Source: a virus (lineage: Duplodnaviria; Heunggongvirae; Uroviricota; Caudoviricetes). From it: a stretch of 12,902 bases of DNA. Location: the IMG/VR virus record IMGVR_UViG_2671180501_000005, one strand, 5' to 3'. The notes beneath the pieces are model-generated. The model was not told the DNA's origin. It did no database searches and was given only the letters and a program-made list of their open reading frames with translations. Position numbers and translations under genes: made by a program. Of this stretch, positions 1-12,902 are shown in pieces. The first letter of the stretch is position 1, and each line of letters opens with the position of its first letter.

Positions 1-20
1 CAAGAGCCTGTCCAATGTGC

Positions 21-56
21 ATAAAAAAATCCGGAAACAAGTGAGCGTTTCCGGAT
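21..56 (-). terminator. Rho-independent terminator downstream of the portal gene
   Basis: Inverted repeat ATCCGGAAAC / GTTTCCGGAT (plus 29-38 and 47-56) with an 8-nt loop; on the minus strand it is followed by a run of 7 T (plus A-run 23-29). Confidence 0.55.
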
Positions 57-89
57 TCTTACACAGCCACTGGATCGGTCAACTGATCC

Positions 90-1337
90 TTAACTGATCG
101 GCATTACACCACCGGGACGCGGATTCATATCTTCCAGGTCGCGGCAGTCATTGGAAGAGTAAATTCCCCAGTTGATCCCGGTGGCGTAGGCTTCAAAACG
201 GGACTTCATATCCCCGCGCAGTAACGCCCCGGCGTTAAATTTGGCGTAATAAACGCCCTGCTTACTTTTTCGTACCAGTCCGGTGTTGATCCGCTGTTCG
301 ATGCGGGTCAGATACGGCACCAGTGAATAGTTGATAAATCCCAGCCCCAGCTCTTCGATATTGTTGAAGGTGGCGCGATCGGTGTTCTGCACCATGTGCA
401 ACGGCACCCGGAACAGACGACAGATTTCTTCCAGCTGAAACTTGCGGGTTTCCAGGAACTGACTGTCCTCGGCGTTCAGCGCCATCGACTTCCAGTCCAG
501 CCCCATTTCCAGAATCATCGGGCGGTGAGCATTGCCAAGCCCCGTGTGACACTCCTCAAAATCTTTCTTCAGACGCTCGTAAGCATCCGGCGTGAGCTTT
601 TGTTCCGTACGCAACACACCGGATGTCACCGCACCATTACTAAACAACCTGGCACCGTGCTCCTCGGTTGCCGCTGCCAGTGAAATGGCCTCACGCGCAT
701 ACGCAATGGGATTCAGCCCGACAAGTCCATCCAGCGTCAGGGTGCGCACATGCCAGATTTCATTCTGGGTCAACACATCCACGGAACCATCCGGAAACGT
801 CACCTGATAAACCGGCTGCCACTGGCTGTTCAGCTTCGGTTCCACACAGCCCGGATCTATCGGAAGAAGCTCCACCACTTCTCCCAGTGCCTTTACCTTG
901 TAGGCGTAAAAATTCCCCCGTAGACACAGGCAGACAATAACCAGCTCCCAGAATTCCTGCGGTGTCATGTAGCCATTAGGTTTTGCCGAAACCAACTTAT
1001 GCAGTCGTTCATCCACCGCCCGTGTTTTCAGGGTACCGCTGATTTTGTAGAGACTGCAGGGCAGCATACCAACAGACTCTGCCAGCACCCTGACGCAAGA
1101 ATAGACCGCCGTCAGGCGCATGGCCCGCTGGCTACTGATCCGCTTTCCGGTATAGGTGTCGTATGACAGCCCGATAGCATCAGCAGTTCTGCTGGCGTGG
1201 TCACCGGCACATCGCTTTTTCGTTGAAATAATCCCGAAAAGAACACTATTTACCTCCGCCGACAGACTGCCGTGTACGGTCGAGATATCGCGCCACCAGC
1301 CACGACCAGAACAGGCACAGCGCCCCGGCAACAACAA
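90..1337 (-). CDS. Phage portal protein, HK97 family; start codon uncertain
   Basis: 415-aa ORF directly downstream of large terminase with portal-like motifs ([19 protein letters not shown] near the N-terminus). The listed first codon is TTG at 1337; no in-frame ATG exists until residue 73. The 5' 92 nt overlap the small ORF 1246..1428 in another frame. Confidence 0.8.
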
Positions 1338-1428
1338 AACCCGCCGGGGGATAAATCAGCCAGGCACCATACGCCAGCAAAAGCGCACCCAGCACGCCCA
1401 CCAGAGGCGCGAGAATCAGCATGATCAT
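1246..1428 (-). CDS. Hypothetical small membrane protein (60 aa, two predicted TM segments)
   Basis: ATG at 1428 preceded by GAGGT at about 5 nt spacing, 12 nt after the terL stop; hydrophobic sequence [49 protein letters not shown]. No family recognised. Confidence 0.45.
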
Positions 1429-1439
1429 AATTACCTCAG

Positions 1440-3173
1440 TTAAAGCGAGCGGATCCCGTAGGACTCAATGTGGTCAGACAGCGTGTCTTCTTTCTCGTAC
1501 AGCATGGCTCTGCCAACCGCCATAATCAGCGCAACTGCACCATCGATTTTGTTTTCCGCCTGCTCTTTGACGGGTTTCACCACATCATCGTTACCCGGCA
1601 TGTTTTTGCCGACCACGTTGCCGATACACCAGGTCATGATGGGATTGCCGTCATGATGAAAACGTCCCGATTCAATCGCTGCTTCCAGCTCTTTCATCGG
1701 ATCGGACATATTGGTGAAGTTCTGGACGATAGTGACGGGATTCAGGTCTTCATCAGCAAGGTCATGTGACAACCCGGTCGCCCCGAAGGGGTCGATGGGT
1801 GACTCACTGACCGGGCTGATTTTGTTCGCCGCTTTGGCCTCCTCGAGGATGTAGCGATAATCCACCTCCGCACCATCGGTAACGGTCAGAACGCCCATTT
1901 CCACCCATTTCTGAAAGCGTTCGGCTGTCCGTCGATCTTCATTTTTCTCGACGCTGTACACCGTGTCATACGGTACCCAGAAACGCGGGGCCACACTGTA
2001 GTAATGCGTTTTACCGTCAATCTCGCGGGTATAAAGTCGCGCCATGCTGTTCATATCCAGCTTACGCGCCAGGTCAAAGGCCAGAATGCACGGCTGCCCC
2101 TCGAACTGCTCAAGGGTCAGTGATTTATCCTCGCAGCTCTGCCAGCTCACCAAGTTGAAATACGCCGAACGCGCCGACACCCAGATATTGAGGTGTTTTG
2201 TTTTAAAGACGTTTGCCAGACGGGCGTTATTTTTCGCACGCTGCTGCTGACTTAACAAAAATTCGCGATAAACCGACACGCCAATATTTGGATTGGCTTT
2301 TTCCAGCACCTGCGGGCCGGTCCAGTCGTCACCTTCATCAACGGTATAGATGATCCCGAACAGTTCATCGTTAGGCACCGAGCCGTTGAGCATCTCGATG
2401 ACTTCCCGCCGCTTGTCGTAGCACGGCCCCTCAATGTTGTACCCGGCGGTGGTGATGGCCCACATCAGTGGCTGACGTCGCGCCCCCATCCCGGTAAGCA
2501 TTGTGGTATAAAGCGCATCGGTGGCATGCTCGTGATATTCATCAACCACGGCACAGTGGGGTGATGAACCATCACCTGGGTTGCCGATCAGCGGTTCAAA
2601 CCGCGCGCCATCCTCCGGACGGTTCATGTTTGAGGCGTTAACCTCAATCCCGAACGCTTCCGTCAGCATGGGTGTGCGTTTACACATCAGTCGCGCCGGG
2701 CGAAAGACTTCCCACGCCTGTTTCTCTGTCGTGGCACCGGAATACACTTCCGCGCCAAACTCGTTATCACAGGCAAAACAATACAGGGCAACACCGGCAG
2801 AGATTGCTGATTTGCCGTTCTTACGGGGGATTTCGGTGTACACCTCCCGGAAGCGGCGCAACCGGGTGCCTTTATTGACCCAGCCAAACGCACAGCAGAT
2901 CACAAATAGCTGCCACGGCTCCAGCGTGATGGGCATCCGTTTGAATGCCCACTCCCCCTTGGTGTGCGGCAACAGCTGAATAAATTTCGCGGCCCGTTCA
3001 GCCAGGTCCTTGTCGAAGCGGTAACGAAACGACTTACTTTTTTCCGCCATCAGGTCATCAAGATGGCGCTGGCAGGCCTGAATCACAAACTGGCAGGCAA
3101 CAATCTTTCCGCGCACGACATCCCGGGCATACTGATTTGCAGCATTTACGTTGGGGTAAGATTTCCGGCTCAT
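1440..3173 (-). CDS. Terminase large subunit
   Basis: 577-aa ORF with ATG start; terminase ATPase/nuclease-like sequence; its start overlaps the stop of the upstream small terminase ORF (ATGA). Confidence 0.9.
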
Positions 3174-3664
3174 GATTCGATAATTTTCAGAAACGGGTTA
3201 GTGGCTTTCTTCTGCCCCGCCAGGCCAATCAGACGCTGGCGGCTGCTGGGGTCGAGTCCGAGCATTGCCCCCGTGCTGCTCATCTCGGACTCCTGTTCTT
3301 TTTTGGCGGTCAGCTCCGGATTTTTGACCCTGCCGCCCATTGCACCGGTGATGGTGTTGCCCTGTATGGCAATATTTTTCACGGCACGTCGCCAGAACTC
3401 ATAGGCCACGCACCACCGCTCAAGTACCGCCAGGTCAGTCACGCACAGCAGGCCCTGACCGCAGAGTTCTTTGGTTGTCAGTTGCCACATGATCGTGGCG
3501 AGAGGGAGATCTTCTTCAGCGAACCACTCTGGTGGCTCAACACCTTTGATGGGCGTAAAAACAGGTTCATCTTTGTTCAGGGCTCGCTTGCCGGGGTTTC
3601 CGGCCAGCGCCTTGCGCGCCGTTGGCTTGGGGCGACGCCCGGAACGCCCCGCCGTTCCAGCCAT
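3170..3664 (-). CDS. Terminase small subunit (P27-family-like)
   Basis: The ORF track starts at GTG 3673, but ATG 3664 has AGGAG about 8 nt upstream, so 3664 is the preferred start. Basic N-terminus ([22 protein letters not shown]) typical of P27-type small terminases; stop overlaps the terL start. Confidence 0.8.
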
Positions 3665-3785
3665 ATGCGGCACTCCTGGTTAAATTTCATTTTTCGCGGG
3701 TATAAAAAAACGATGGGGCGGGCAGTCCGGAAGACGTCAGGTCACAGGGATTTGCCCCGCCCCTCCCTACAAGTGAGAATAATTA

Positions 3786-4136
3786 TCACCGGATTCGTTC
3801 GCGCGCTGTTTTCGCTTTATGGCAGGGCCAGCACAGACTCTGCAGGTTGCTGTCTGCGTCTGTTCCGCCATGCGCTTTCGGGATGATGTGGTCGACGGTT
3901 TTCGCCTCGCTCACCACACCGACACGCAGACACAACTGACACAGACCTTTATCGCGCTTCAGAATACGGGCACGAATCACCGTCCATTTTGAGCCATAGC
4001 CACGCTGGTGGCGGCTCAGTCCGCGCTGGTGCTGCACCCAGCCTTCACCGCGATGTTTATCGCAGTAACCCGAACTGTCTGTGGTTGTACCTGCACATCC
4101 ACGCTTACGGCAGGCACGTGGGATTAGTGATGGCAT
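3786..4136 (-). CDS. HNH endonuclease (terminase-associated)
   Basis: 116-aa ORF with Cys-rich zinc-binding motifs (CRKRGC, CDKH, CQLC) and an HNH core (DHIIPKAHGGTD...N...LCWPCH); GAGGT RBS upstream of ATG 4136; position immediately upstream of terS. Confidence 0.85.
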   Translation of the reverse strand: MPSLIPRACRKRGCAGTTTDSSGYCDKHRGEGWVQHQRGLSRHQRGYGSKWTVIRARILKRDKGLCQLCLRVGVVSEAKTVDHIIPKAHGGTDADSNLQSLCWPCHKAKTARERIR

Positions 4137-4178
4137 AAATACCTCATACCCTGCGAAATGTTTACCACGATAAAAAGG

Positions 4179-4643
4179 CTACTTAATGCACTGAGTGCGG
4201 ATATACTCCTGTGCCCCTTCCAGTTGCATCTGCATCGTCATCAGCCGCTCTCTGAGGGTGAAATAATCCCGTTCAGCGGTGTCTGCCAGTCGGGGGCTGG
4301 TTGCATTATCCACGCCGGAGGCGGTGGTGGCTTCACGCACTGACTGACAGACTGCTTTGATGTGCAACCGACGACGACCAGCGGCAACATCAGCGCGCAG
4401 AGTTTCATTTTCAGCTTTCGCATCAGCTAACTCCTTCGTGTATTTAGCATCGAGTGCATTAACATCACGCTGTCTCTGCTGCATGTCAGTAATGGTTGCG
4501 TTCGCCAGCTTCAGTTCTCTTGCGTTTTTGTCGCGCTGCTCTTTGTAGGTAATGGCGTTATCACGGTAATGATTAACAGCCCATGACAGGCAGACGATGA
4601 TGCAGATAACCAGAGCGGAGATAATCGCGGTGACTCTGCTCAT
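4179..4643 (-). CDS. Rz: i-spanin Rz
   Basis: From [29 protein letters not shown] the sequence is near-identical to lambda Rz as I recall it; ATG 4643 overlaps the endolysin stop (ATGA). The listed ORF start at 4655 is probably an upstream extension. Confidence 0.9.
4241..4423 (-). CDS. Rz1: o-spanin Rz1, embedded in Rz in the +1 frame
   Basis: 60-aa [63 protein letters not shown]: lipoprotein signal with lipobox LVVVGC and proline-rich stretch, matching lambda Rz1; lies wholly inside Rz. Confidence 0.85.
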
Positions 4644-5137
4644 TGCTGCCCCCACAAACAGACTTCACGCTCAATCTCACGACGGGTCATCAGCCCTTTC
4701 CATTGCTTACCGCCAGCATATGTCCAGCGACGTAGCTGGTCACATGCGCCTTTGATATCGCCCTGGTTTATTTTGCGAAGAAGCGTCGATGTTCTGAAAT
4801 TGCCAGCGCCCACGTTGTAAACGAACGAGTAAAGAGCGCCGCGCGTTGTTTCCGGTATATCGACTTTGATGTACGGGTTAATTTGTCTGGCGACAGTGGC
4901 AAGGTCTTTATTCAGGAGGGCTTTGCATTCTGCTTCGGTATACGTTTTACCGAGCATGATGTCTTTTCCGGTGTGTCCGTGACATACAGTCCATACACCA
5001 ATGATATCTTTGTATGGTATGTAGCTGACACCTTCCAGACCATCGTTACCACCTGGGCCAGTGATTAACACAGATGCTATAGCAACAGCCCCACCACCAA
5101 TAGCAGCTGCAACAGCCTTGCGTAATGATGGCGACAT
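4640..5137 (-). CDS. R: SAR endolysin (phage lysozyme, R21 / rrrD-like)
   Basis: 165 aa; N-terminal Gly/Ala-rich signal-anchor-release segment ([20 protein letters not shown]) followed by a lysozyme domain; matches my recollection of DLP12 RrrD / phage 21 R. Start ATG overlaps the holin stop. Confidence 0.9.
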
Positions 5138-5318
5138 TATTCACCTCTCGCAGCCTTACGCTTGTCTTCTCTTATTTTGAAATACAGATTTGTCAGATAA
5201 GTCAGAAGCCCCAGAAGCAGACTTCCCAGCACACCAATCGCAGCCCACTGTGATGGACTGACCTGATCCAACCACTGCAAAAACCAGTAGCCGGCACTGC
5301 CGGCGGAGGTGCCGTAGG
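5137..5318 (-). CDS. S: Holin (class II / pinholin-like, S21 / essD-like); 5' end lost in assembly gap
   Basis: Resolved C-terminal 59 aa [59 protein letters not shown] match DLP12 EssD (about 71 aa) as I recall it. About 12 N-terminal codons fall in the N run; stop TAA at 5137-5139. Confidence 0.8.
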
Positions 5319-5713
5319 NNNNNNNNNNNNNNNNNNNNNNNNNNNNNNNNNNNNNNNNNNNNNNNNNNNNNNNNNNNNNNNNNNNNNNNNNNNNNNNNNN
5401 NNNNNNNNNNNNNNNNNNNNNNNNNNNNNNNNNNNNNNNNNNNNNNNNNNNNNNNNNNNNNNNNNNNNNNNNNNNNNNNNNNNNNNNNNNNNNNNNNNNN
5501 NNNNNNNNNNNNNNNNNNNNNNNNNNNNNNNNNNNNNNNNNNNNNNNNNNNNNNNNNNNNNNNNNNNNNNNNNNNNNNNNNNNNNNNNNNNNNNNNNNNN
5601 NNNNNNNNNNNNNNNNNNNNNNNNNNNNNNNNNNNNNNNNNNNNNNNNNNNNNNNNNNNNNNNNNNNNNNNNNNNNNNNNNNNNNNNNNNNNNNNNNNNN
5701 NNNNNNNNNNNNN
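5319..5713. other. Assembly gap (395 N)
   Basis: Uninterrupted run of N; true length and content unknown. The long ORFs the track draws through it are artefacts. Confidence 0.99.
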
Positions 5714-5776
5714 GAGTCAGACATTCCCACACAATATTGTGTCAGTGCAAATAACAACCTTCGTCTCAAATCTCGC

Positions 5777-5851
<75 letters not shown>

Positions 5852-5854
5852 ATA

Positions 5855-5930
<76 letters not shown>

Positions 5931-5932
5931 GC

Positions 5933-6009
5933 TGGCCCACCACCGAGGACTCGAACCTCGCACCGTCAACTTAGAAGGTTGATGCTCTATCCGGATGAGC
6001 TAGTGGTGG
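5933..6009 (-). tRNA. tRNA-Arg (anticodon UCU)
   Basis: Minus-strand CCACCACTAGCTCATCCGGATAGAGCATCAACCTTCTAAGTTGACGGTGCGAGGTTCGAGTCCTCGGTGGTGGGCCA; perfect acceptor (with an unusual C1:G72 pair), D and T stems perfect, anticodon loop CTTCTAA. Confidence 0.8.
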
Positions 6010-6010
6010 T

Positions 6011-6087
6011 TGGTGGCCCTTGCTGGACTTGAACCAGCGACCTGGCGATTATGAGTCGCTCGCTCTGACCAACTGAGCTAAAGGGCC
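6011..6087 (-). tRNA. tRNA with CAU anticodon, most like tRNA-Ile2 (lysidine-type, ileX/ileZ-like) rather than elongator Met
   Basis: Minus-strand GGCCCTTTAGCTCAGTTGGTCAGAGCGAGCGACTCATAATCGCCAGGTCGCTGGTTCAAGTCCAGCAAGGGCCACCA; anticodon loop CTCATAA; overall close to E. coli ileX as recalled. Ile versus Met cannot be settled from the anticodon alone. Confidence 0.8.
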
Positions 6088-6096
6088 GGAGGCAGA

Positions 6097-6125
6097 ATAA
6101 TAACCATATGTCATCACATCTGCAA
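6097..6125 (-). promoter_or_regulatory. Candidate sigma70 promoter for the tRNA cluster
   Basis: On the minus strand TTGCAG (plus 6120-6125), 17-nt spacer, TATTAT (plus 6097-6102), ending about 9 nt upstream of the first tRNA. Hand-matched to consensus only. Confidence 0.3.
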
Positions 6126-6173
6126 ACTCATCTGACCACCAGCACGTTTAACGTCCTGTGCCGTTTTTCAGGT

Positions 6174-6201
6174 ATAAAAAAACCCGCTCATCGGCGGGTT
6201 T
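6174..6201 (-). terminator. Rho-independent terminator after the ORF6N gene
   Basis: Stem AACCCGC / GCGGGTT (7 bp, plus 6181-6187 and 6194-6200) with a 6-nt loop, followed on the minus strand by a T-run (plus A-run 6176-6181). Confidence 0.65.
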
Positions 6202-6276
6202 AAGCTGTGTGGCGTAGTAACCACTCTTAACAGGATATTCAACTTTTTACGATCGTAAAGTTTTCGGAAAAAATTT

Positions 6277-6846
6277 TTAAAACCGCATCAACCGCTCCAC
6301 CAGTTGCTCTTTACGGGCAACGATCCACCCGTGTTGCTCCAGATAAAATTTAAACCGTTCCAGAGTACATACCATCGCATCGGCGGGTACCTTTTCCGTG
6401 AACTCAACCTGACCGTGTTTATCGAAGTGGCTCAGTAATGCGCATCCATCATTTTCGATAGATGTGTTTTGTGCCGCTGGTGGCTGTTTCTGGTTGAAAT
6501 AACAGTCTTCCAGTTTTTCGAACACTTCCCACGCCTGATCGGTTTCGAGCATTTTGGCGTGACGGGCTGCGCCACGTTCTGTCCAGAGGATGAGGGAGCG
6601 AACGTTACGGGCAATTTTCACAGAAACTCTTAAAGAGTTTTCGTTCTTCAACTCTCGTAACGCATCACCTTCTATCAGGAAAAAATGTTTACCTTCTATA
6701 AACCGTTCTTTGTTTCGATTGAAATTGTTTGTCAAACGCTGGCGCTCTGTTCCGTACAAATCAGCCAGCAGCTCTGTTGTCATGACAGGAAGATGGTTAT
6801 GCGTAAGTGACGGGAGTTTTTCAATAGACGTGCGATTCATAGACAT
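6277..6846 (-). CDS. ORF6N-domain phage protein (cargo gene downstream of Q)
   Basis: Motifs LPVMTTELLADLYGTE, NFNRNKERFIEGKHFFL and LWTERGAARHAKML are characteristic of the ORF6N domain (recalled). Start chosen at ATG 6846 (AAAGGAC RBS, then MSMNRTSIEK); in-frame alternative ATG at 6930 lacks an RBS; the track start at 7038 is probably a non-coding extension. Confidence 0.7.
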   Translation of the reverse strand: MSMNRTSIEKLPSLTHNHLPVMTTELLADLYGTERQRLTNNFNRNKERFIEGKHFFLIEGDALRELKNENSLRVSVKIARNVRSLILWTERGAARHAKMLETDQAWEVFEKLEDCYFNQKQPPAAQNTSIENDGCALLSHFDKHGQVEFTEKVPADAMVCTLERFKFYLEQHGWIVARKEQLVERLMRF

Positions 6847-7046
6847 GTCCTTTCGAATATTTTGATTTACCCCTTTTGAGAGGGTGACCGGGCGCTCAAA
6901 ACCGTCGAAAGTCGGCGGGCGTATTTCCATTGCTGGTATTGTATTAGCCGCACACCCGGTCATAAACCAAGAATTCTGGACACAAAAAAACCACATGGCT
7001 ATCGGGTGTGGATACCGCTTTCGAGGTGTTTTGAGCACCGCGGGGA

Positions 7047-7075
7047 AATGTAAACTGCAAACCTGAAACTGTCAA
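7047..7075 (-). promoter_or_regulatory. Candidate sigma70 promoter for the ORF6N gene
   Basis: Minus strand TTGACA (plus 7070-7075), 17-nt spacer, TACATT (plus 7047-7052); about 190 nt upstream of the ORF6N start. Confidence 0.35.
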
Positions 7076-7199
7076 CACCGTCAGGTTCCAATCATCGGGT
7101 GGTGAGACGCACAGGGTTGGAACTACCGGGAAACCGACCGGCGAGCTTTTCAGCTCCCCCATGCGCCCCACCATAATTCAGATGTGCGCGTGCATACGA

Positions 7200-7225
7200 C
7201 AATAAAAAACACGCTCGCGGCGTGT
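7200..7225 (-). terminator. Rho-independent terminator downstream of Q (candidate tR-prime)
   Basis: Minus strand ACACGC-CGCGA-GCGTGT hairpin (plus 7209-7225) followed by TTTTTTATT (plus 7200-7208); about 80 nt downstream of the candidate pR-prime. Confidence 0.6.
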
Positions 7226-7286
7226 GTCTGTCGCGGTCTCTATCCGGGGTTCCAATCCCGACGCCAGATTTTGCTGGCGCGTGAGG

Positions 7287-7316
7287 AATATAGCCCCGGA
7301 CAATGTGTCTGGTCAA
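7287..7316 (-). promoter_or_regulatory. Candidate late promoter pR-prime
   Basis: Minus strand TTGACC (plus 7311-7316), 17-18 nt spacer, CTATAT/TATATT (plus 7287-7292), beginning 5 nt downstream of the Q stop codon. Confidence 0.45.
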
Positions 7317-7320
7317 GCAC

Positions 7321-7707
7321 CTACATAATTCGTTCTACGTATCTGTCCATCTCCAGCCGGATATCAAGCATCATCAACATGCCATCAATAACCCCTTCCG
7401 CTTTCTGCAGGCGCTTGCCAATACAGGTATCCGAACACCCATGTTTCCGTGCCAGACTCATAAAAGTCATTCCACCTACGTAATAATCCACCAGCAAATC
7501 GTGCAAATCCTGATTTTTCTTGTTCAACCGGGCCATACAGCCACAAATTATCATTGCATCATCATCAGAACACTGAGGGCGTGATTTCACTTTCGACGGA
7601 ATTAACCCTTTAAAACCAGCAGCGATCGACGCCCAGGATACATCTTCATGAGTGTTTGCAGCCCAAGCCCCCCACCGTTCCATAACCTGCTGAATATCAC
7701 GCGCCAT
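7321..7707 (-). CDS. Q: Late-gene antitermination protein Q (quuD-like)
   Basis: From [36 protein letters not shown] the protein matches DLP12 QuuD (about 127 aa) as I recall it. ATG 7707 has AGGTGA about 5 nt upstream; the track start at 7728 is a likely over-extension. Confidence 0.85.
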
Positions 7708-8068
7708 CGTTATCACCTGTGATTTCATAAATCTTCACGCCCAGTCGCCCACCAGGAACGAGCTGACCGCGCACAATATTGATTTCATCAAACTGCTCGT
7801 CGTCTATGAGTAGTCCGGCATGCGTCAGCGCATCCAGTGGTGCTTTCAGGATATTGTCCAGGTCACGACGGCGCTTATCCGGTGGCTCTGCAATAATCTT
7901 TATCGCCAGCCTTCCGGACAGGTTTAATTTCAGCCGCTGCTGGCGAACAATTAGCGTCACATCACGGCGATAACGCTCACCAACTTTTGATACAAAATAT
8001 GTGCTGCCACGACGTCGCCAGTAAGTATTCACCGTCGGCGGATAAGGTAAAATAAACTCATGGCGCAT
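7697..8068 (-). CDS. rusA: RusA-family Holliday junction resolvase
   Basis: 123 aa with conserved RusA motifs ([31 protein letters not shown]); position between the replication genes and Q as in lambdoid nin regions. Confidence 0.85.
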
Positions 8069-8310
8069 CAGCGCAGCACCTCCTGCACCATTTTTTCAAA
8101 CTTTCCAACTTTGGTTTCCAGCTCTGCCACACAATCAACGAGCTCATCCACCGCTTTTTGTGCGCGATGTTTCGCCTGCATCAGTTCCCTGAGCGCTGGC
8201 ACCATATCCCGACGAATGGCATCTTTTGTTACACCTGTTTTTTCCAGTTGTTCCGCCTGTCGCAACATTTCCTGCGCGTGTTTACGCAATTGTTCAGAGG
8301 TAAAAGTCAT
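8068..8310 (-). CDS. Hypothetical phage protein (about 80 aa, predicted helical)
   Basis: ORF between helicase and rusA; track start is TTG at 8325, first ATG is 8310 (MTFTSEQLRKHAQ...), weak RBS. Stop overlaps the rusA start (TGATG). No family recognised. Confidence 0.4.
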   Translation of the reverse strand: MTFTSEQLRKHAQEMLRQAEQLEKTGVTKDAIRRDMVPALRELMQAKHRAQKAVDELVDCVAELETKVGKFEKMVQEVLR

Positions 8311-8321
8311 TGTCTGGTTGT

Positions 8322-9713
8322 TCAAAAGAAACGCTCCATCTTACTGCTGTCGGTACGTGTATTGCTGTATCTGCGCGGCTGGGGCTGCCGCATTGGGGTG
8401 GAAAGAACCTGTGCGCTTTCCTGGTCCACAGGCAGAAAATGTCCGTTATAAAAACGCCGGTAAATCGTCCCCAGAGAACCGTTACGTTGTTTCGTGATAT
8501 TAATTTCTGCTATGCCTGTAGCCTGTGTATCCGGGTTGTACACTTCATCCCTGTAAAGCATCAGAATGATGTCTGCATCCGCCTCTATTTCTCCGGAATT
8601 TTTCAGGTCTGAGTTCATGGGACGTTTATTGGGTCTGGACTCCACACCGCGGGAGAGCTGGCTCAGCGCAATCAACGGAAAACCACCGGATTTTGCCAGG
8701 CCTTTAAGCCCCTTTGAGATTTCACCCACGGCAAGGTCATGACGCCCCGTGGTTCGGGTTTTTATCAGCCCGAGATAATCAACCACCACCAGCGCCGTTT
8801 CCGGATGTTTAATCAGATGGTGTTTCGTTGTTGCGCATATCTCATCAATGGTCAGGTTCGCCTGGTCCACCATCCAGATATTGCGCCCGGTCATCCGCCC
8901 CACCCCTTGTGAGAAACGCGCCCAGTCTTCATCTTCAAAGTGAGCCACAGATTTCAGGCGTGATACTGGCATCCCTCCAGCCGCAGACACCATACGTTCA
9001 CCAATCTGGATGTTCGCCATCTCCATGGTGAACAGAAGCACACCATGCCCCTGCTCAGTCACCTTGTCGATGATGTCCAGCGCAAGTTCGGTTTTCCCCA
9101 TCGAAGGACGGGCGGCAATGAATACCAGGTCTCCGGGCTCCATACCGCCTGTTTTTGCGTCCAGTTCATCAATACCGGTCATCAACGTCCTGGATTTCTC
9201 CAGCCCCTGATTCCGGCATTCAACACGCTCAACCACTTCCGGAAGCACATCATCAATATGTACCGGCTGAATGACGCCCTTTCCTGTCGACAGTGTGACC
9301 ATCATGTTCTGCGCATCCTTCAGGGCATCTTCAGCTGCTTCACAGGTATGCGCATCACGTAATTTCTGCAGCGCCTCATTCAGTGTTTTTTCTGCATCGC
9401 GCAGTGCGGCATTGCGCCGCAACGCTGCAACATAGTGCTCCAGTGAAGACTTCACCCAGGTTTTACGCCCGGTATCAGTAATCACCGGGGCAAGTTCCGG
9501 CATCTCATTACACAACAGCACGGGGTCAATCACTCCTGAAACACGGGCCTGTCTGCAGATGCCTGTGTAGATATCCCGATACGCTCGTACAGAAAAAATG
9601 TCCGCCGGTAGTGTGATCAGAATATCCATCACTTCATGATCTGCCCCACGCAGAAAGAATGCGCCAATGACAGCGCCTTCCAGGTCATCATTACGCCAGA
9701 CTGGTGTTGTCAT
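8322..9713 (-). CDS. DnaB-like replicative DNA helicase
   Basis: Walker A-like SMGKTELALDI, DnaB-like C-terminal motifs and N-terminal domain. Start taken at ATG 9713 (MTTPVWRNDDLEG); the track's longer N-terminal extension runs into the IS2 end and is not credible. Confidence 0.85.
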   Translation of the reverse strand: MTTPVWRNDDLEGAVIGAFFLRGADHEVMDILITLPADIFSVRAYRDIYTGICRQARVSGVIDPVLLCNEMPELAPVITDTGRKTWVKSSLEHYVAALRRNAALRDAEKTLNEALQKLRDAHTCEAAEDALKDAQNMMVTLSTGKGVIQPVHIDDVLPEVVERVECRNQGLEKSRTLMTGIDELDAKTGGMEPGDLVFIAARPSMGKTELALDIIDKVTEQGHGVLLFTMEMANIQIGERMVSAAGGMPVSRLKSVAHFEDEDWARFSQGVGRMTGRNIWMVDQANLTIDEICATTKHHLIKHPETALVVVDYLGLIKTRTTGRHDLAVGEISKGLKGLAKSGGFPLIALSQLSRGVESRPNKRPMNSDLKNSGEIEADADIILMLYRDEVYNPDTQATGIAEINITKQRNGSLGTIYRRFYNGHFLPVDQESAQVLSTPMRQPQPRRYSNTRTDSSKMERFF

Positions 9714-9817
9714 GCAGCCACACCTCTGATACAAGAACGGTAGCTGGGCCAGTTGAACGACAACCAGTTGCGCCCCCCGTCTGTGATCCTGTCGGCAATG
9801 CGGGGGCTGATGAACGC
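9710..9817 (-). pseudogene. 3' remnant (about 35 codons) of an upstream phage replication gene truncated by IS2
   Basis: Open frame ...AFISPRIADRITDGGRNWLSFNWPSYRSCIRGVAA ending in TGA that overlaps the helicase ATG (ATGA), running without a start directly from the IS2 terminus. Confidence 0.3.
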
Positions 9818-9828
9818 TGGATTTGCCC

Positions 9829-10734
9829 CTATATTTCCAGACACCTGTTATCACTTAACCCATTACTGGCTTGCTGCCGTAGATATTCCCGTGGCGAGCG
9901 ATAACCCAGTGCACTATGCGGATGCCATTCGTTATAATGCTCGAACGCCTCTGCAAGGTTCTTTGCTGCCGTTAACCCGTCTGGTTTGGGCATGACACTG
10001 ATGTAGTCACGCTTTATCGTTTTCACGAAGCTCTCTGCTATGCCGTTACTCTCCGGACTCCGCACCGCCGTGCTCTTCGGTTCAAGCCCCAACATCCGGG
10101 CAAACTGCCGTGTTTCATTAGCCCGGTAGCATGAACCATTATCCGTCAGCCACTCTACTGGAGACGCCGGAAGCTCGTTGCCGAAGCGGCGTTCCACCGC
10201 TCCCAGCATGACGTCCTGTACTGTTTCACTGTTGAAGCCGCCCGTAGTGACCGCCCAGTGCAGTGCCTCACGGTCACAGCAGTCCAGCGCGAACGTGACT
10301 CGCAGTTTTTCTCCGTTATCACAGCGGAACTCGAACCCGTCAGAGCACCATCGCTGATTACTTTCTTTCACAGCCACTCTGCCTGTATGTGCCCGTTTCG
10401 ATGGCGGTACAGCAGGTTTTCGCTCAAGCAACAGCGCATTCTGGCGCATGATCCGGTAAACACGTTTGGCATTGATCGCAGGCATACCATCAAGTTCTGC
10501 CTGTCTGCGAAGCAGCGCCCATACCCGACGATAACCATACGTGGGCAGCTCTCCGATAACATGGTGTATACGGAGAAGCACATCCGTATCATCAGTGTGA
10601 CGACTGCGGCGGCCATCCATCCAGTCATCGGTTCGTCTGAGAATGACGTGCAACTGCGCACGCGACACCCGGAGACAACGGCTGACTAAGCTTACTCCCC
10701 ATCCCCGGGCAATAAGGGCGCGTGCGCTATCCAC
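9829..10734 (-). CDS. insD: IS2 transposase OrfB (InsD)
   Basis: 301-aa ORF matching InsD as recalled (DDE integrase core); overlaps insC at the A-AAA-AAG slippery heptamer (plus 10734-10740). Confidence 0.9.
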
Positions 10735-10977
10735 TTTTTTGCCCGTCCATATTCAACGGCTTCTTTGAGGAGTTCATTTTCCATCGTTTTCTTGCCGAGC
10801 AGGCGCTGGAGTTCTTTAATCTGCTTCATGGCGGCAGCAAGTTCAGAGGCAGGAACAACCTGTTCTCCGGCGGCCACAGCAGTAAGACTTCCTTCCTGGT
10901 ATTGCTTACGCCAGAGAAATAACTGGCTGGCTGCTACACCATGTTGCCGGGCAACGAGGGAGACCGTCATCCCCGGT
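10692..10977 (-). pseudogene. insC: IS2 OrfA (InsC), 5'-truncated
   Basis: Encodes ...[27 protein letters not shown]...LPGDGE, the C-terminal about 92 aa of InsC; similarity to IS2 stops at plus 10977, where unrelated sequence begins. Confidence 0.8.
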
Positions 10978-10985
10978 AACAGGGA

Positions 10986-11837
10986 TTAATCCGCATAAGC
11001 TGCCAGCATTTCCTGCGCCGCCAGTTTACCCAACGCATTCGCTGCGAAAGGACTGTCGCCGGTGAGAACTTTACGGTCCTTATGTACTCGCCCGGTGATG
11101 TCGTCATTAATAATGTTCATGCCCATTTTCTTCAGCTCTTCGCCGAAGTACCAGGTGAGATGACCCGGCATATAGCCTATCTCTGGCGTTTGTTTGTCTG
11201 CGGCGTCTGGGAATGCGCAAATGGAATAACCATTCAGTGGGTTATCGCCGTGGCGAAGCGCCAGAAAAGCCGCCGGGCCGTGGCAAAGGGAGATAACAAA
11301 ACGGTCATTTTTGATTGCCCACTGCAAAGCAGCAGCTACGTCCTGGCTTTCTGGTAAACCAATAAGTGCGCCATGACCACCAGGAACAAAGATTGCTGCA
11401 TATTCGCTATCAGCGTTGAGGCTGGCGACAACATCCGCGAGTTTCTTCGGATTGCGGAACAACGATTTATGCTGCTCAAAGAATGGCATTACTTTTTCAT
11501 CTTTGTGCGGCATAGCCCAGTATTCAAACTTGGTCATCAGACCGGAAATGGTCGCCACTTCGAATTCGAAACCAGCAGCATGGAGATGATACAACGGCAG
11601 CAACGTTTCAATCGGATGGTTACCGGTCGAGAACAGTTTTCCGTTATCGGTTGGCAAATAACGTTCGTCCGCGGCGATCACCAGAATTTTATGCTTACCG
11701 CGATACGGTTTTGGATAGTCCACGCCATCAAGATCAGAGACGGGACTGGTATATTGGCTAAGCGAATATTCTGAAGGGAAGAATGCATTATCTTCAGCAA
11801 TATCGACCTGCGGATTTTTACTTGTTTGAACAGTCAT
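10986..11837 (-). CDS. hchA: Hsp31 glyoxalase/chaperone HchA
   Basis: 283-aa ORF beginning MTVQTSKNPQVDIAEDNAFFPSEYSLSQYTSPVSDLDGVDYPKPYRGKHKILVIAADERYLPTDNGKLFSTGNHP, matching E. coli HchA as recalled; ATG start with AAGGA RBS. Confidence 0.9.
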   Translation of the reverse strand: MTVQTSKNPQVDIAEDNAFFPSEYSLSQYTSPVSDLDGVDYPKPYRGKHKILVIAADERYLPTDNGKLFSTGNHPIETLLPLYHLHAAGFEFEVATISGLMTKFEYWAMPHKDEKVMPFFEQHKSLFRNPKKLADVVASLNADSEYAAIFVPGGHGALIGLPESQDVAAALQWAIKNDRFVISLCHGPAAFLALRHGDNPLNGYSICAFPDAADKQTPEIGYMPGHLTWYFGEELKKMGMNIINDDITGRVHKDRKVLTGDSPFAANALGKLAAQEMLAAYAD

Positions 11838-12427
11838 AGTGTATTCCTTATTGTTGCTTAGTTAGGGTAGTCACTATATTTGCGACTGAGCTGGTCGCTA
11901 TTTTTAACCAGTCTGGAAAATTGAGTCAATATATCGAAAGCGGTAGTCGGCGGGTGTAAGTATGTAATGATGATGCTGCACTGGTGTTGAATATTATTCA
12001 CGCCAAATTTTCCTTATTGAGCAACGTCGTCGCAAGTGGCCTCAATGATTTTAGGCCATTATCAAAGGTACGGGGCGGCGGGGAGAGATTTAGTGCTGTG
12101 AAATATTGTGGTACTGATGAATATTTATATCGCGGATTGGTAGAGAAAAGATTATTTCATGCACTATTTTTGCAAATATTTCTATATGGGAAGCGTGTTT
12201 GTTACGGATTAATTCATAAAGAAATGCATTTGGGTGTTGGTTTGAAGAGTCGCTGGTTGATGTTATTGTGCCAGGAGGGGCAGGGTAAGGTGCTGTATCG
12301 ATATGCATTGGCAATTGCGTGTGCCGCAGATGGAGATGAAATGCCAATAAAAAAGCCTGAATTCGATGAGGGACGAACTCAGGCTAGTGTTTAGTTTTAC
12401 AGTAACACGCCGCAGCACGTTGGCTGA

Positions 12428-12798
12428 TTAGAACTGGTAGACTAAGCCCACACCAACAACGTCATCTGTTGCGATGCCATTGTTGTCATAGAAATCGTCA
12501 TCTTTATCCAACAAGTTTATTTTATAGTCAACATATGTTGAGAAGTTCTTATTGAAATAGTAGGTCGCTCCAATTTCAACATAGTTGACCAGATCCTGAT
12601 CAACATACTCCTGATGACCATTGTTGTTATAGTCGTTACCGCCGAGGTCTTTGCCTTTTGAATAAACATATGCAAGAGATGGGCGCAGACCAAAATCGAA
12701 CTGATACTGTGCTACAGCTTCAAAGTTCTGGGTTTTATTTGCGATACCCACATTACCATATGGTGTCATATTGCGGGTTTCAGCATACATCATTGCAA
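12428..12798 (-). pseudogene. OmpC-family porin gene (yedS-like), 3' portion only; interrupted by IS1
   Basis: Encodes the porin C-terminus (...[23 protein letters not shown]...[22 protein letters not shown]...GLVYQF); reading frame runs open to the IS1 junction at 12798/12799. Confidence 0.8.
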
Positions 12799-12902
12799 GG
12801 GTAATGACTCCAACTTATTGATAGTGTTTTATGTTCAGATAATGCCCGATGACTTTGTCATGCAGCTCCACCGATTTTGAGAACGACAGCGACTTCCGTC
12901 CC
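12799..12902 (-). mobile_element. IS1, partial (continues beyond window end)
   Basis: GGTAATGACTCCAACTTATTGATAGTGTTTTATGTTCAGATAATGCCCGATGACTTTGTCATGCAGCTCCACCGATTTTGAGAACGACAGCGACTTCCGTCCC matches an IS1 terminal inverted repeat and adjacent sequence as recalled; orientation places insAB on the minus strand. Confidence 0.9.

Follow-up and report, generated by a model that had tools for sequence, protein, structure and literature searches.

A run of Ns between the tRNA array and the holin gene of a Shigella sonnei-type defective lambdoid prophage very probably hides a non-coding late-operon leader

What lies between the tRNA genes and the lysis genes of a lambdoid prophage when its assembly leaves that interval blank? 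In 933W-type Stx2 phages, the late region runs from Q through pR′, tR′ and the tRNA genes ileZ-argN-argO to stxAB and then to S. The window analysed here, a stretch of viral DNA of 12,902 nt, resembles this arrangement in having Q, rare-codon tRNAs with CAT and TCT anticodons, lysis genes and terminators through which Q-modified polymerase presumably transcribes, and it carries an assembly gap directly upstream of its holin gene. An earlier note on this DNA had marked the gap as a place where a toxin or another cargo gene might be hidden.

Layout of the late region around the gap

The window contains a single run of Ns, and all genes flanking it lie on the minus strand. In the order of transcription these are the antiterminator gene Q, a gene for an ORF6N-domain protein, four tRNA genes (Met, Arg, Thr, Gly), 63 resolved nt, the gap, and the holin, lysozyme and Rz-like genes. 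The features, in window coordinates, are as follows.

4179-5137, minus strand: rest of the lysis cassette (lysozyme and Rz-like genes)
4179-4655, minus strand: Rz-like lysis protein gene (PF03245 on the equivalent Ss046 gene; annotation of relatives)
4640-5137, minus strand: lysozyme gene (PF00959, 2.1e-45)
5137-5318, minus strand: holin gene of the phage-21-type class II, resolved 3′ part of 182 nt (PF04971, 9.6e-31 for the fragment)
5319-5713, no strand: assembly gap of 395 N between the four-tRNA array and the 5′-truncated holin gene
5714-5776, minus strand: tRNA-side end of the tRNA-Gly-to-holin spacer, 63 nt, resolved; used as the diagnostic flank
5777-6087, minus strand: phage tRNA array of four genes (annotation of relatives; Rfam tRNA matches in the related locus L003)
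5777-5851, minus strand: tRNA-Gly(tcc)
5855-5930, minus strand: tRNA-Thr(tgt)
5933-6009, minus strand: tRNA-Arg(tct)
6011-6087, minus strand: tRNA-Met(cat), called by ARAGORN
6277-7038, minus strand: ORF6N-domain protein gene, an ORF of 253 aa (PF10543, 1.5e-20)
7321-7728, minus strand: antiterminator Q gene (PF06530, 2.7e-52)

These gene and tRNA calls confirmed the anatomy of Q, tRNA array, gap and holin that had been described from the letters of the window. Q lies upstream of the lysis genes on the same strand, and the holin, endolysin and spanin genes follow one another downstream (PF04971, PF00959, PF03245). In relatives the holin gene is 216 nt long including its stop codon, and the gap covers 34 nt of it (11 codons and 1 base), leaving 361 of the 395 N that the holin does not explain; the earlier figures of about 12 missing codons and some 360 nt left over were therefore close to the mark.

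Apart from the ORF6N gene, which sits in resolved sequence and whose identical product is encoded in S. sonnei Ss046, no extra protein gene separates Q from the holin. The ORF6N gene lies between Q and the tRNAs and is flanked by a promoter-like and a terminator-like site of its own. The equivalent of the window's tRNA-Met(cat) in relatives is called tRNA-Ile, of the lysidine type, by PGAP; with tRNA-Arg(tct), a tRNA of this anticodon would make up the rare-codon pair for AUA and AGA that is typical of the tRNA clusters of Stx phages.

At the far side of the phage genes, within the stretch 9818-12902, the phage dnaB region abuts an IS2 fragment of 1160 nt (9818-10977, 98.9%), which is followed directly by chromosomal hchA (10986-11837; NCBIfam equivalog, 528 bits) and then by the C-terminal fragment of an OmpC-like porin gene (12428-12793). 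The prophage is therefore a remnant that has lost its early region and one of its attachment sites.

Closure of the gap and coding content of the spacer

Two IMG/VR contigs match the window on both sides of the gap. One of them (L024) equals positions 13-5318 and 5714-9882 at 100% identity; the other (L035) is 100% identical over 90-5318 and 99.98% identical over 5714-10977. Between the positions that correspond to 5318 and 5714 each holds 651 nt, and the two stretches are identical. The finished chromosome of S. sonnei Ss046, reached through an exact look-up of the ORF6N protein, carries the same 651 nt: all 6762 nt of its segment CP000038.1 2,932,518-2,939,279 (L045) match the closed sequence at 100% identity. 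In these three sequences, the identical flank is 1.8-5.3 kb long to the left of the gap and 4.2-5.3 kb long to its right. The closure is that of relatives with identical flanks; the source strain's own reads are not its basis.

The Ss046 prophage also lies beside hchA and has the gene order of the window (IS2, DnaB, RusA, Q, ORF6N, tRNAs, holin, lysozyme, Rz, HNH, terminase), from which it differs only in the 651 resolved bases that replace the 395 N. On the strength of these matches, the window almost certainly derives from an S. sonnei-type draft genome, and the true length of the interval is almost certainly 651 nt and not 395. The suggestion that the real length could exceed the number of Ns thus proved correct for the sequences with identical flanks.

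The 651 nt consist of the 34-nt holin 5′ end and 617 nt of spacer; together with the 63 resolved nt, the distance from tRNA-Gly to the holin ATG is 680 nt. We used the 63-nt flank as a tag for this spacer in larger collections. Of 5426 complete E. coli genomes, 9 had it, with 14 occurrences in all; it was also present in two GTDB representatives (S. flexneri SFBU1023 and E. coli ECMA0423, at two places each in an exact 40-mer scan) and in 29 IMG/VR loci, none of which contains an N run. In all 36 loci with the flank that were compared, the same spacer follows as far as the contigs reach, with 0-18 differences per aligned stretch, and nine of the 36 are 100% identical to it. The only additional insert among them is the insertion sequence ISEc20. 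No shortened spacer was found in any of the 36, and no variant of 395 nt occurred among relatives.

Completed in this way, the holin has 71 aa, begins with MYQMEK and matches PF04971 at 1.5e-35 (121.4 bits, against a Pfam gathering cutoff of 26) as well as PHROG holin families. The Pfam family is that of the 'Bacteriophage P21 holin S', and the lysis region is ~92% identical in DNA to that of phage 21, whose cassette is composed of the S21 class II pinholin, lysozyme and Rz/Rz1; by the same profile match the window's holin would likewise belong to class II. Unlike in phage 21, a four-tRNA array and the 680-nt spacer lie upstream of the holin in the window's prophage. The N-terminus of the completed holin reads MYQM (L024 4787-4798, within the gap), such that Met1 and Met4 offer possible dual starts as in S21. 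The N-terminus of S21 is MKSM, with a lysine in the short extension. This lysine is missing from the MYQM start, and the distinction between antiholin and holin may therefore work differently from that in S21.

Several lines of analysis addressed whether the spacer encodes a protein. No gene is called in it by the PGAP annotation of two related loci (L002 and L003) or by the annotation of Ss046. The spacer ORFs that we examined, of 98, 71, 37 and 26 aa on the gene strand and 61, 53 and 50 aa on the other, gave no Pfam match and no significant PHROG match at E up to 1. Codon usage was scored with a model trained on the structural and lysis genes of the window, and the held-out ORF6N, Q, RusA and DnaB genes were scored along with the holin gene; the log-likelihood was -0.17 for the 98-aa ORF (ORF98) and -0.13 for the 71-aa ORF, compared with +0.08 to +0.16 for real genes. 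An Rfam search at E up to 1 of the equivalent region of L003 returned the tRNAs and noise only.

ORF98 (L024 4284-4580) deserves separate mention, as many NCBI entries list it under the name 'hypothetical protein [Shigella]'. In a search of 5.8 billion proteins it matched six clusters only, with lengths of 60-115 aa and no Pfam domain, and the four of the six with a source name are all from Shigella. Many of its entries are 'partial' and stand at the ends of short Shigella contigs. The homology block that is common to distant copies of the spacer begins within ORF98, and in the copies of the holin-proximal 350 nt that are ~85% identical, many indels are not multiples of three. Taking codon usage, the few homologues and the frame-breaking indels in related copies together, ORF98 looks like a spurious call. 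In another related locus (L007), the annotation places a 63-aa 'hypothetical protein' ahead of the holin; this was also rejected as a gene, its frame being shifted to 26 aa in the window's spacer.

With regard to toxins, stxAB had been named as a gene to look for in the closed sequence. A tblastn search of the closed window with the subunits of Stx2f and LT-IIb gave a best E of 1.8, and stxAB did not turn up. In the 'phages' collection no record had a high-identity copy of the spacer; there we found just 50-80 nt beside the holin start, plus 71-74% similarity over ~110-180 nt in the LT-IIb prophage and in vB_EcoS-683R6.

As read from its codon usage, homology and annotation, the hidden 617 nt is a non-coding leader with no credible gene and no cargo gene. 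The earlier note had expected that a gap without cargo would close to the holin 5′ end and a short spacer free of any added ORF; this describes the closure well except for 'short', given the 680 nt from tRNA-Gly to the ATG. By comparison with Ss046, the hidden stretch is an ordinary late-operon leader that had already been sequenced.

Cause of the gap and alternative readings

We consider it very probable that the Ns stand for a scaffold gap whose size was estimated, and that this gap hides the 34 nt of holin and the 617 nt of non-coding leader in an S. sonnei-type defective lambdoid prophage. The module of tRNAs and spacer often occurs twice per genome: the 14 places in E. coli are spread over nine genomes, S. 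flexneri SFBU1023 and E. coli ECMA0423 have two copies each, and two IMG taxa are represented by two loci each. Copies within a genome differ by few SNPs, and 8 of the 29 IMG/VR contigs terminate within the spacer. Near-identical copies of the module in more than one prophage per genome would be unresolvable by short-read assemblers and would leave a gap. From the multiple copies, the contig ends and the 'partial' ORF98 entries at contig ends, we infer that the repeat is probably the cause of the gap. The length of the N run is a counterpoint, as 395 N face 651 nt and no relative has a spacer that is 256 nt shorter; gap sizes estimated from paired reads are commonly wrong by hundreds of bases. 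As an account of the exact break points the repeat is incomplete. The ends of the N run differ from the points at which homology breaks in other loci, and we rejected both repeat boundaries and the positions of SNPs between copies as explanations of these ends, neither giving a clean match. In Shigella and EIEC draft assemblies, the module is a site of recurrent breaks at which the lengths of N runs are unreliable.

The same 651 nt could in principle be interrupted by an insertion sequence that broke the assembly, the likeliest being ISEc20 (1449 bp), placed 7 nt before the holin ATG. IS elements abound in Shigella, and a fragment of one, IS2, lies in the window. ISEc20 lies at exactly that point in eight loci (L008, L010, L017, L021, L022, L026, L027 and L034), one of which, L021, displays both junctions, and a further contig (L023), 100% identical to window 5714-10242, ends exactly at the ISEc20 junction. 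However, the junction is uninterrupted in all five spanning loci with 100% identity to the closed sequence (L016, L024, L031, L035 and L045), and the window contains no ISEc20 sequence. An ISEc20 at this point would moreover leave the 611 nt of spacer up to the tRNA flank assembled, as in L023, whereas the window misses those bases too, and the interval expected, ~2.1 kb, is far larger than the estimated 395. We therefore regard an inserted ISEc20 as quite unlikely. A run of Ns at its true length, either as a mask or as a 395-nt deletion variant with a spacer 256 nt below that of every relative, is very unlikely. In its favour, 395 is unlike a conventional placeholder size such as 100, and N-masked stretches are mentioned in the description of one sequence collection; yet a shortened spacer occurs in none of the 36 loci with the 63-nt flank, and 651 nt is the length in relatives that match the window at 100% identity across more than 9 kb. 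As an exact-length deliberate mask the N run was likewise rejected as unsupported, the 395-nt variant being missing among relatives.

That the gap conceals a strain-specific cargo gene, be it a toxin or another moron, is scarcely credible on this evidence, even though the interval itself can carry genes. The view of the interval between Q and S as a variable slot is borne out by distant relatives. Relatives that share the lysis cassette span the stretch between tRNAs and holin at very different lengths, and only some have the 63-nt flank: the slot is empty at 292 nt in L001 and phi467, holds small, doubtful hypothetical ORFs in L042, TerB and DUF3927 genes in E. coli 06-00048 (L043) and a YagU gene in E. 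coli 377323_2f (L044). The latter two have the same cassette of class II holin, RrrD and Rz, at 90-92% identity and after a tRNA array, but one or two protein genes stand between their tRNAs and holin, and their flanks differ from that of the window. Toxin genes also occur nearby in related lambdoid prophages, namely stx2f in phage phi467 and LT-IIb in the SerU prophage; both nevertheless lie outside the interval, stx2f upstream of the tRNAs and elt after the endolysin gene. The relatives that do carry cargo lack the window's 63-nt flank, this flank always leads into the empty spacer in the 9 of 5426 complete E. coli genomes that contain it, sequences with identical flanks hold no gene, and at ~1.2 kb stxAB exceeds the estimated gap size. 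The possibility of a hidden toxin or other cargo did not survive the comparison with the three sequences with 100% identical flanks, finished Ss046 among them, all of which give the holin end and an ORF-less spacer. As far as identical sequence can speak for the source strain, the slot is empty in the window's prophage and the finished sequence refutes hidden cargo; unlike in 933W-type phages, the tRNA-to-S interval is non-coding and holds no toxin operon. Since the finished genome resolves the same sequence and contains the holin start and a non-coding leader only, a potential hiding place for a toxin in a Shigella-type prophage could be cleared without wet-lab work, a result of little biological weight.

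The comparison with phi467 (LN997803.1), an Stx2f-converting phage, illustrates how the same modules can be combined differently. Its HNH-terminase and lysis modules are of the same type, at 93% identity over the matched parts, and tRNA-Thr and tRNA-Gly are followed by a class II holin as in the window. Upstream of its tRNAs, however, phi467 has stxAB where the window has ORF6N, two more tRNAs and no stx, and its 292-nt spacer between tRNA-Gly and the holin is without the window's 63-nt flank. The counterpart of the ORF6N position in phi467 is the stx2f operon.

ISEc20, so named by PGAP, is an IS110-family element with a DEDD transposase (PF01548, 6.9e-49); its copy in L021 occupies 2267-3715. 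In all eight loci the insertion falls at the same nucleotide, closed coordinate 5359, which is part of a G run downstream of the leader terminator and ahead of the holin start. Identical insertion points look like site-specific targeting. With an ISEc20 at this pre-holin G run, the lysis cassette would be cut off from late transcription.

Hairpins and promoter-like sites of the late region

Scans and folding of the closed late region yielded a set of candidate regulatory sites. Those in resolved sequence, in window coordinates, are as follows.

6097-6126, minus strand: sigma-70 promoter-like site directly upstream of the tRNA array (consensus match only)
6180-6201, minus strand: terminator-like hairpin and T run downstream of the ORF6N gene (-12.0 kcal/mol, z -3.1)
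7075-7047, minus strand: promoter-like site before ORF6N
7209-7316, minus strand: candidate late promoter and short hairpin directly downstream of Q

The last of these comprises a candidate late promoter at 7316-7287 (TTGACC-18-TATATT, a consensus match only) and a weak terminator-like hairpin at 7225-7209 (z -1.6), which by their position may be putative counterparts of pR′ and tR′.

Within the closed spacer, the strongest predicted intrinsic terminator is a hairpin at L024 4720-4746 with a 10-bp stem that includes 6 G-C pairs (-18.8 kcal/mol, z -3.2), followed by TTTTTTCTTTC; on the transcribed strand the U run after the hairpin is UUUUUUCUUUCC, and the holin ATG lies 41 nt downstream of the terminator. 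A weaker terminator-like hairpin is predicted at L024 4365-4384, and a hairpin with an 11-bp stem at 4555-4610 (-25.2 kcal/mol, z -4.8). Two loci with unrelated spacer types (L042 and L044) also have a hairpin-like repeat and a T run at the equivalent pre-holin position, as read by eye from the alignment, outside the terminator scan. Folding of the whole 680-nt spacer gave a z of -1.97 (20 shuffles) and no convincing global structure.

By analogy with lambda and 933W-type phages, these sites would fit a simple scheme. Late transcription would start at the promoter just past Q, and Q would render the polymerase resistant to terminators. The late transcript would then cross the ORF6N gene, the four tRNAs and the 680-nt spacer before expressing holin, lysozyme and Rz. 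In the lysogen, transcripts begun at the tRNA and ORF6N promoters would end at the spacer terminators, and without Q the lysis genes would remain silent. The promoter and terminator roles assigned here are suggested by consensus scans and folding. It seems unlikely that the leader is a functional regulatory RNA element that gates the lysis genes, or else that ORF98 is a real Shigella-specific small protein.

A further observation concerns the holin-proximal part of the leader. An unannotated block of 350 nt (L024 4405-4754, in the gap) lies directly upstream of class II holins, and the very stable 11-bp-stem hairpin, which is conserved, sits within it, as does a predicted terminator. Copies of this block are found at L005 3001-3344, L006 3001-3348 and L007 3001-3377. 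At ~85% identity the block is present in 1428 of the 5426 complete E. coli genomes, including 639 places on plasmids; on ColV plasmids it stands beside iss and Rz remnants, and the holin gene is gone.
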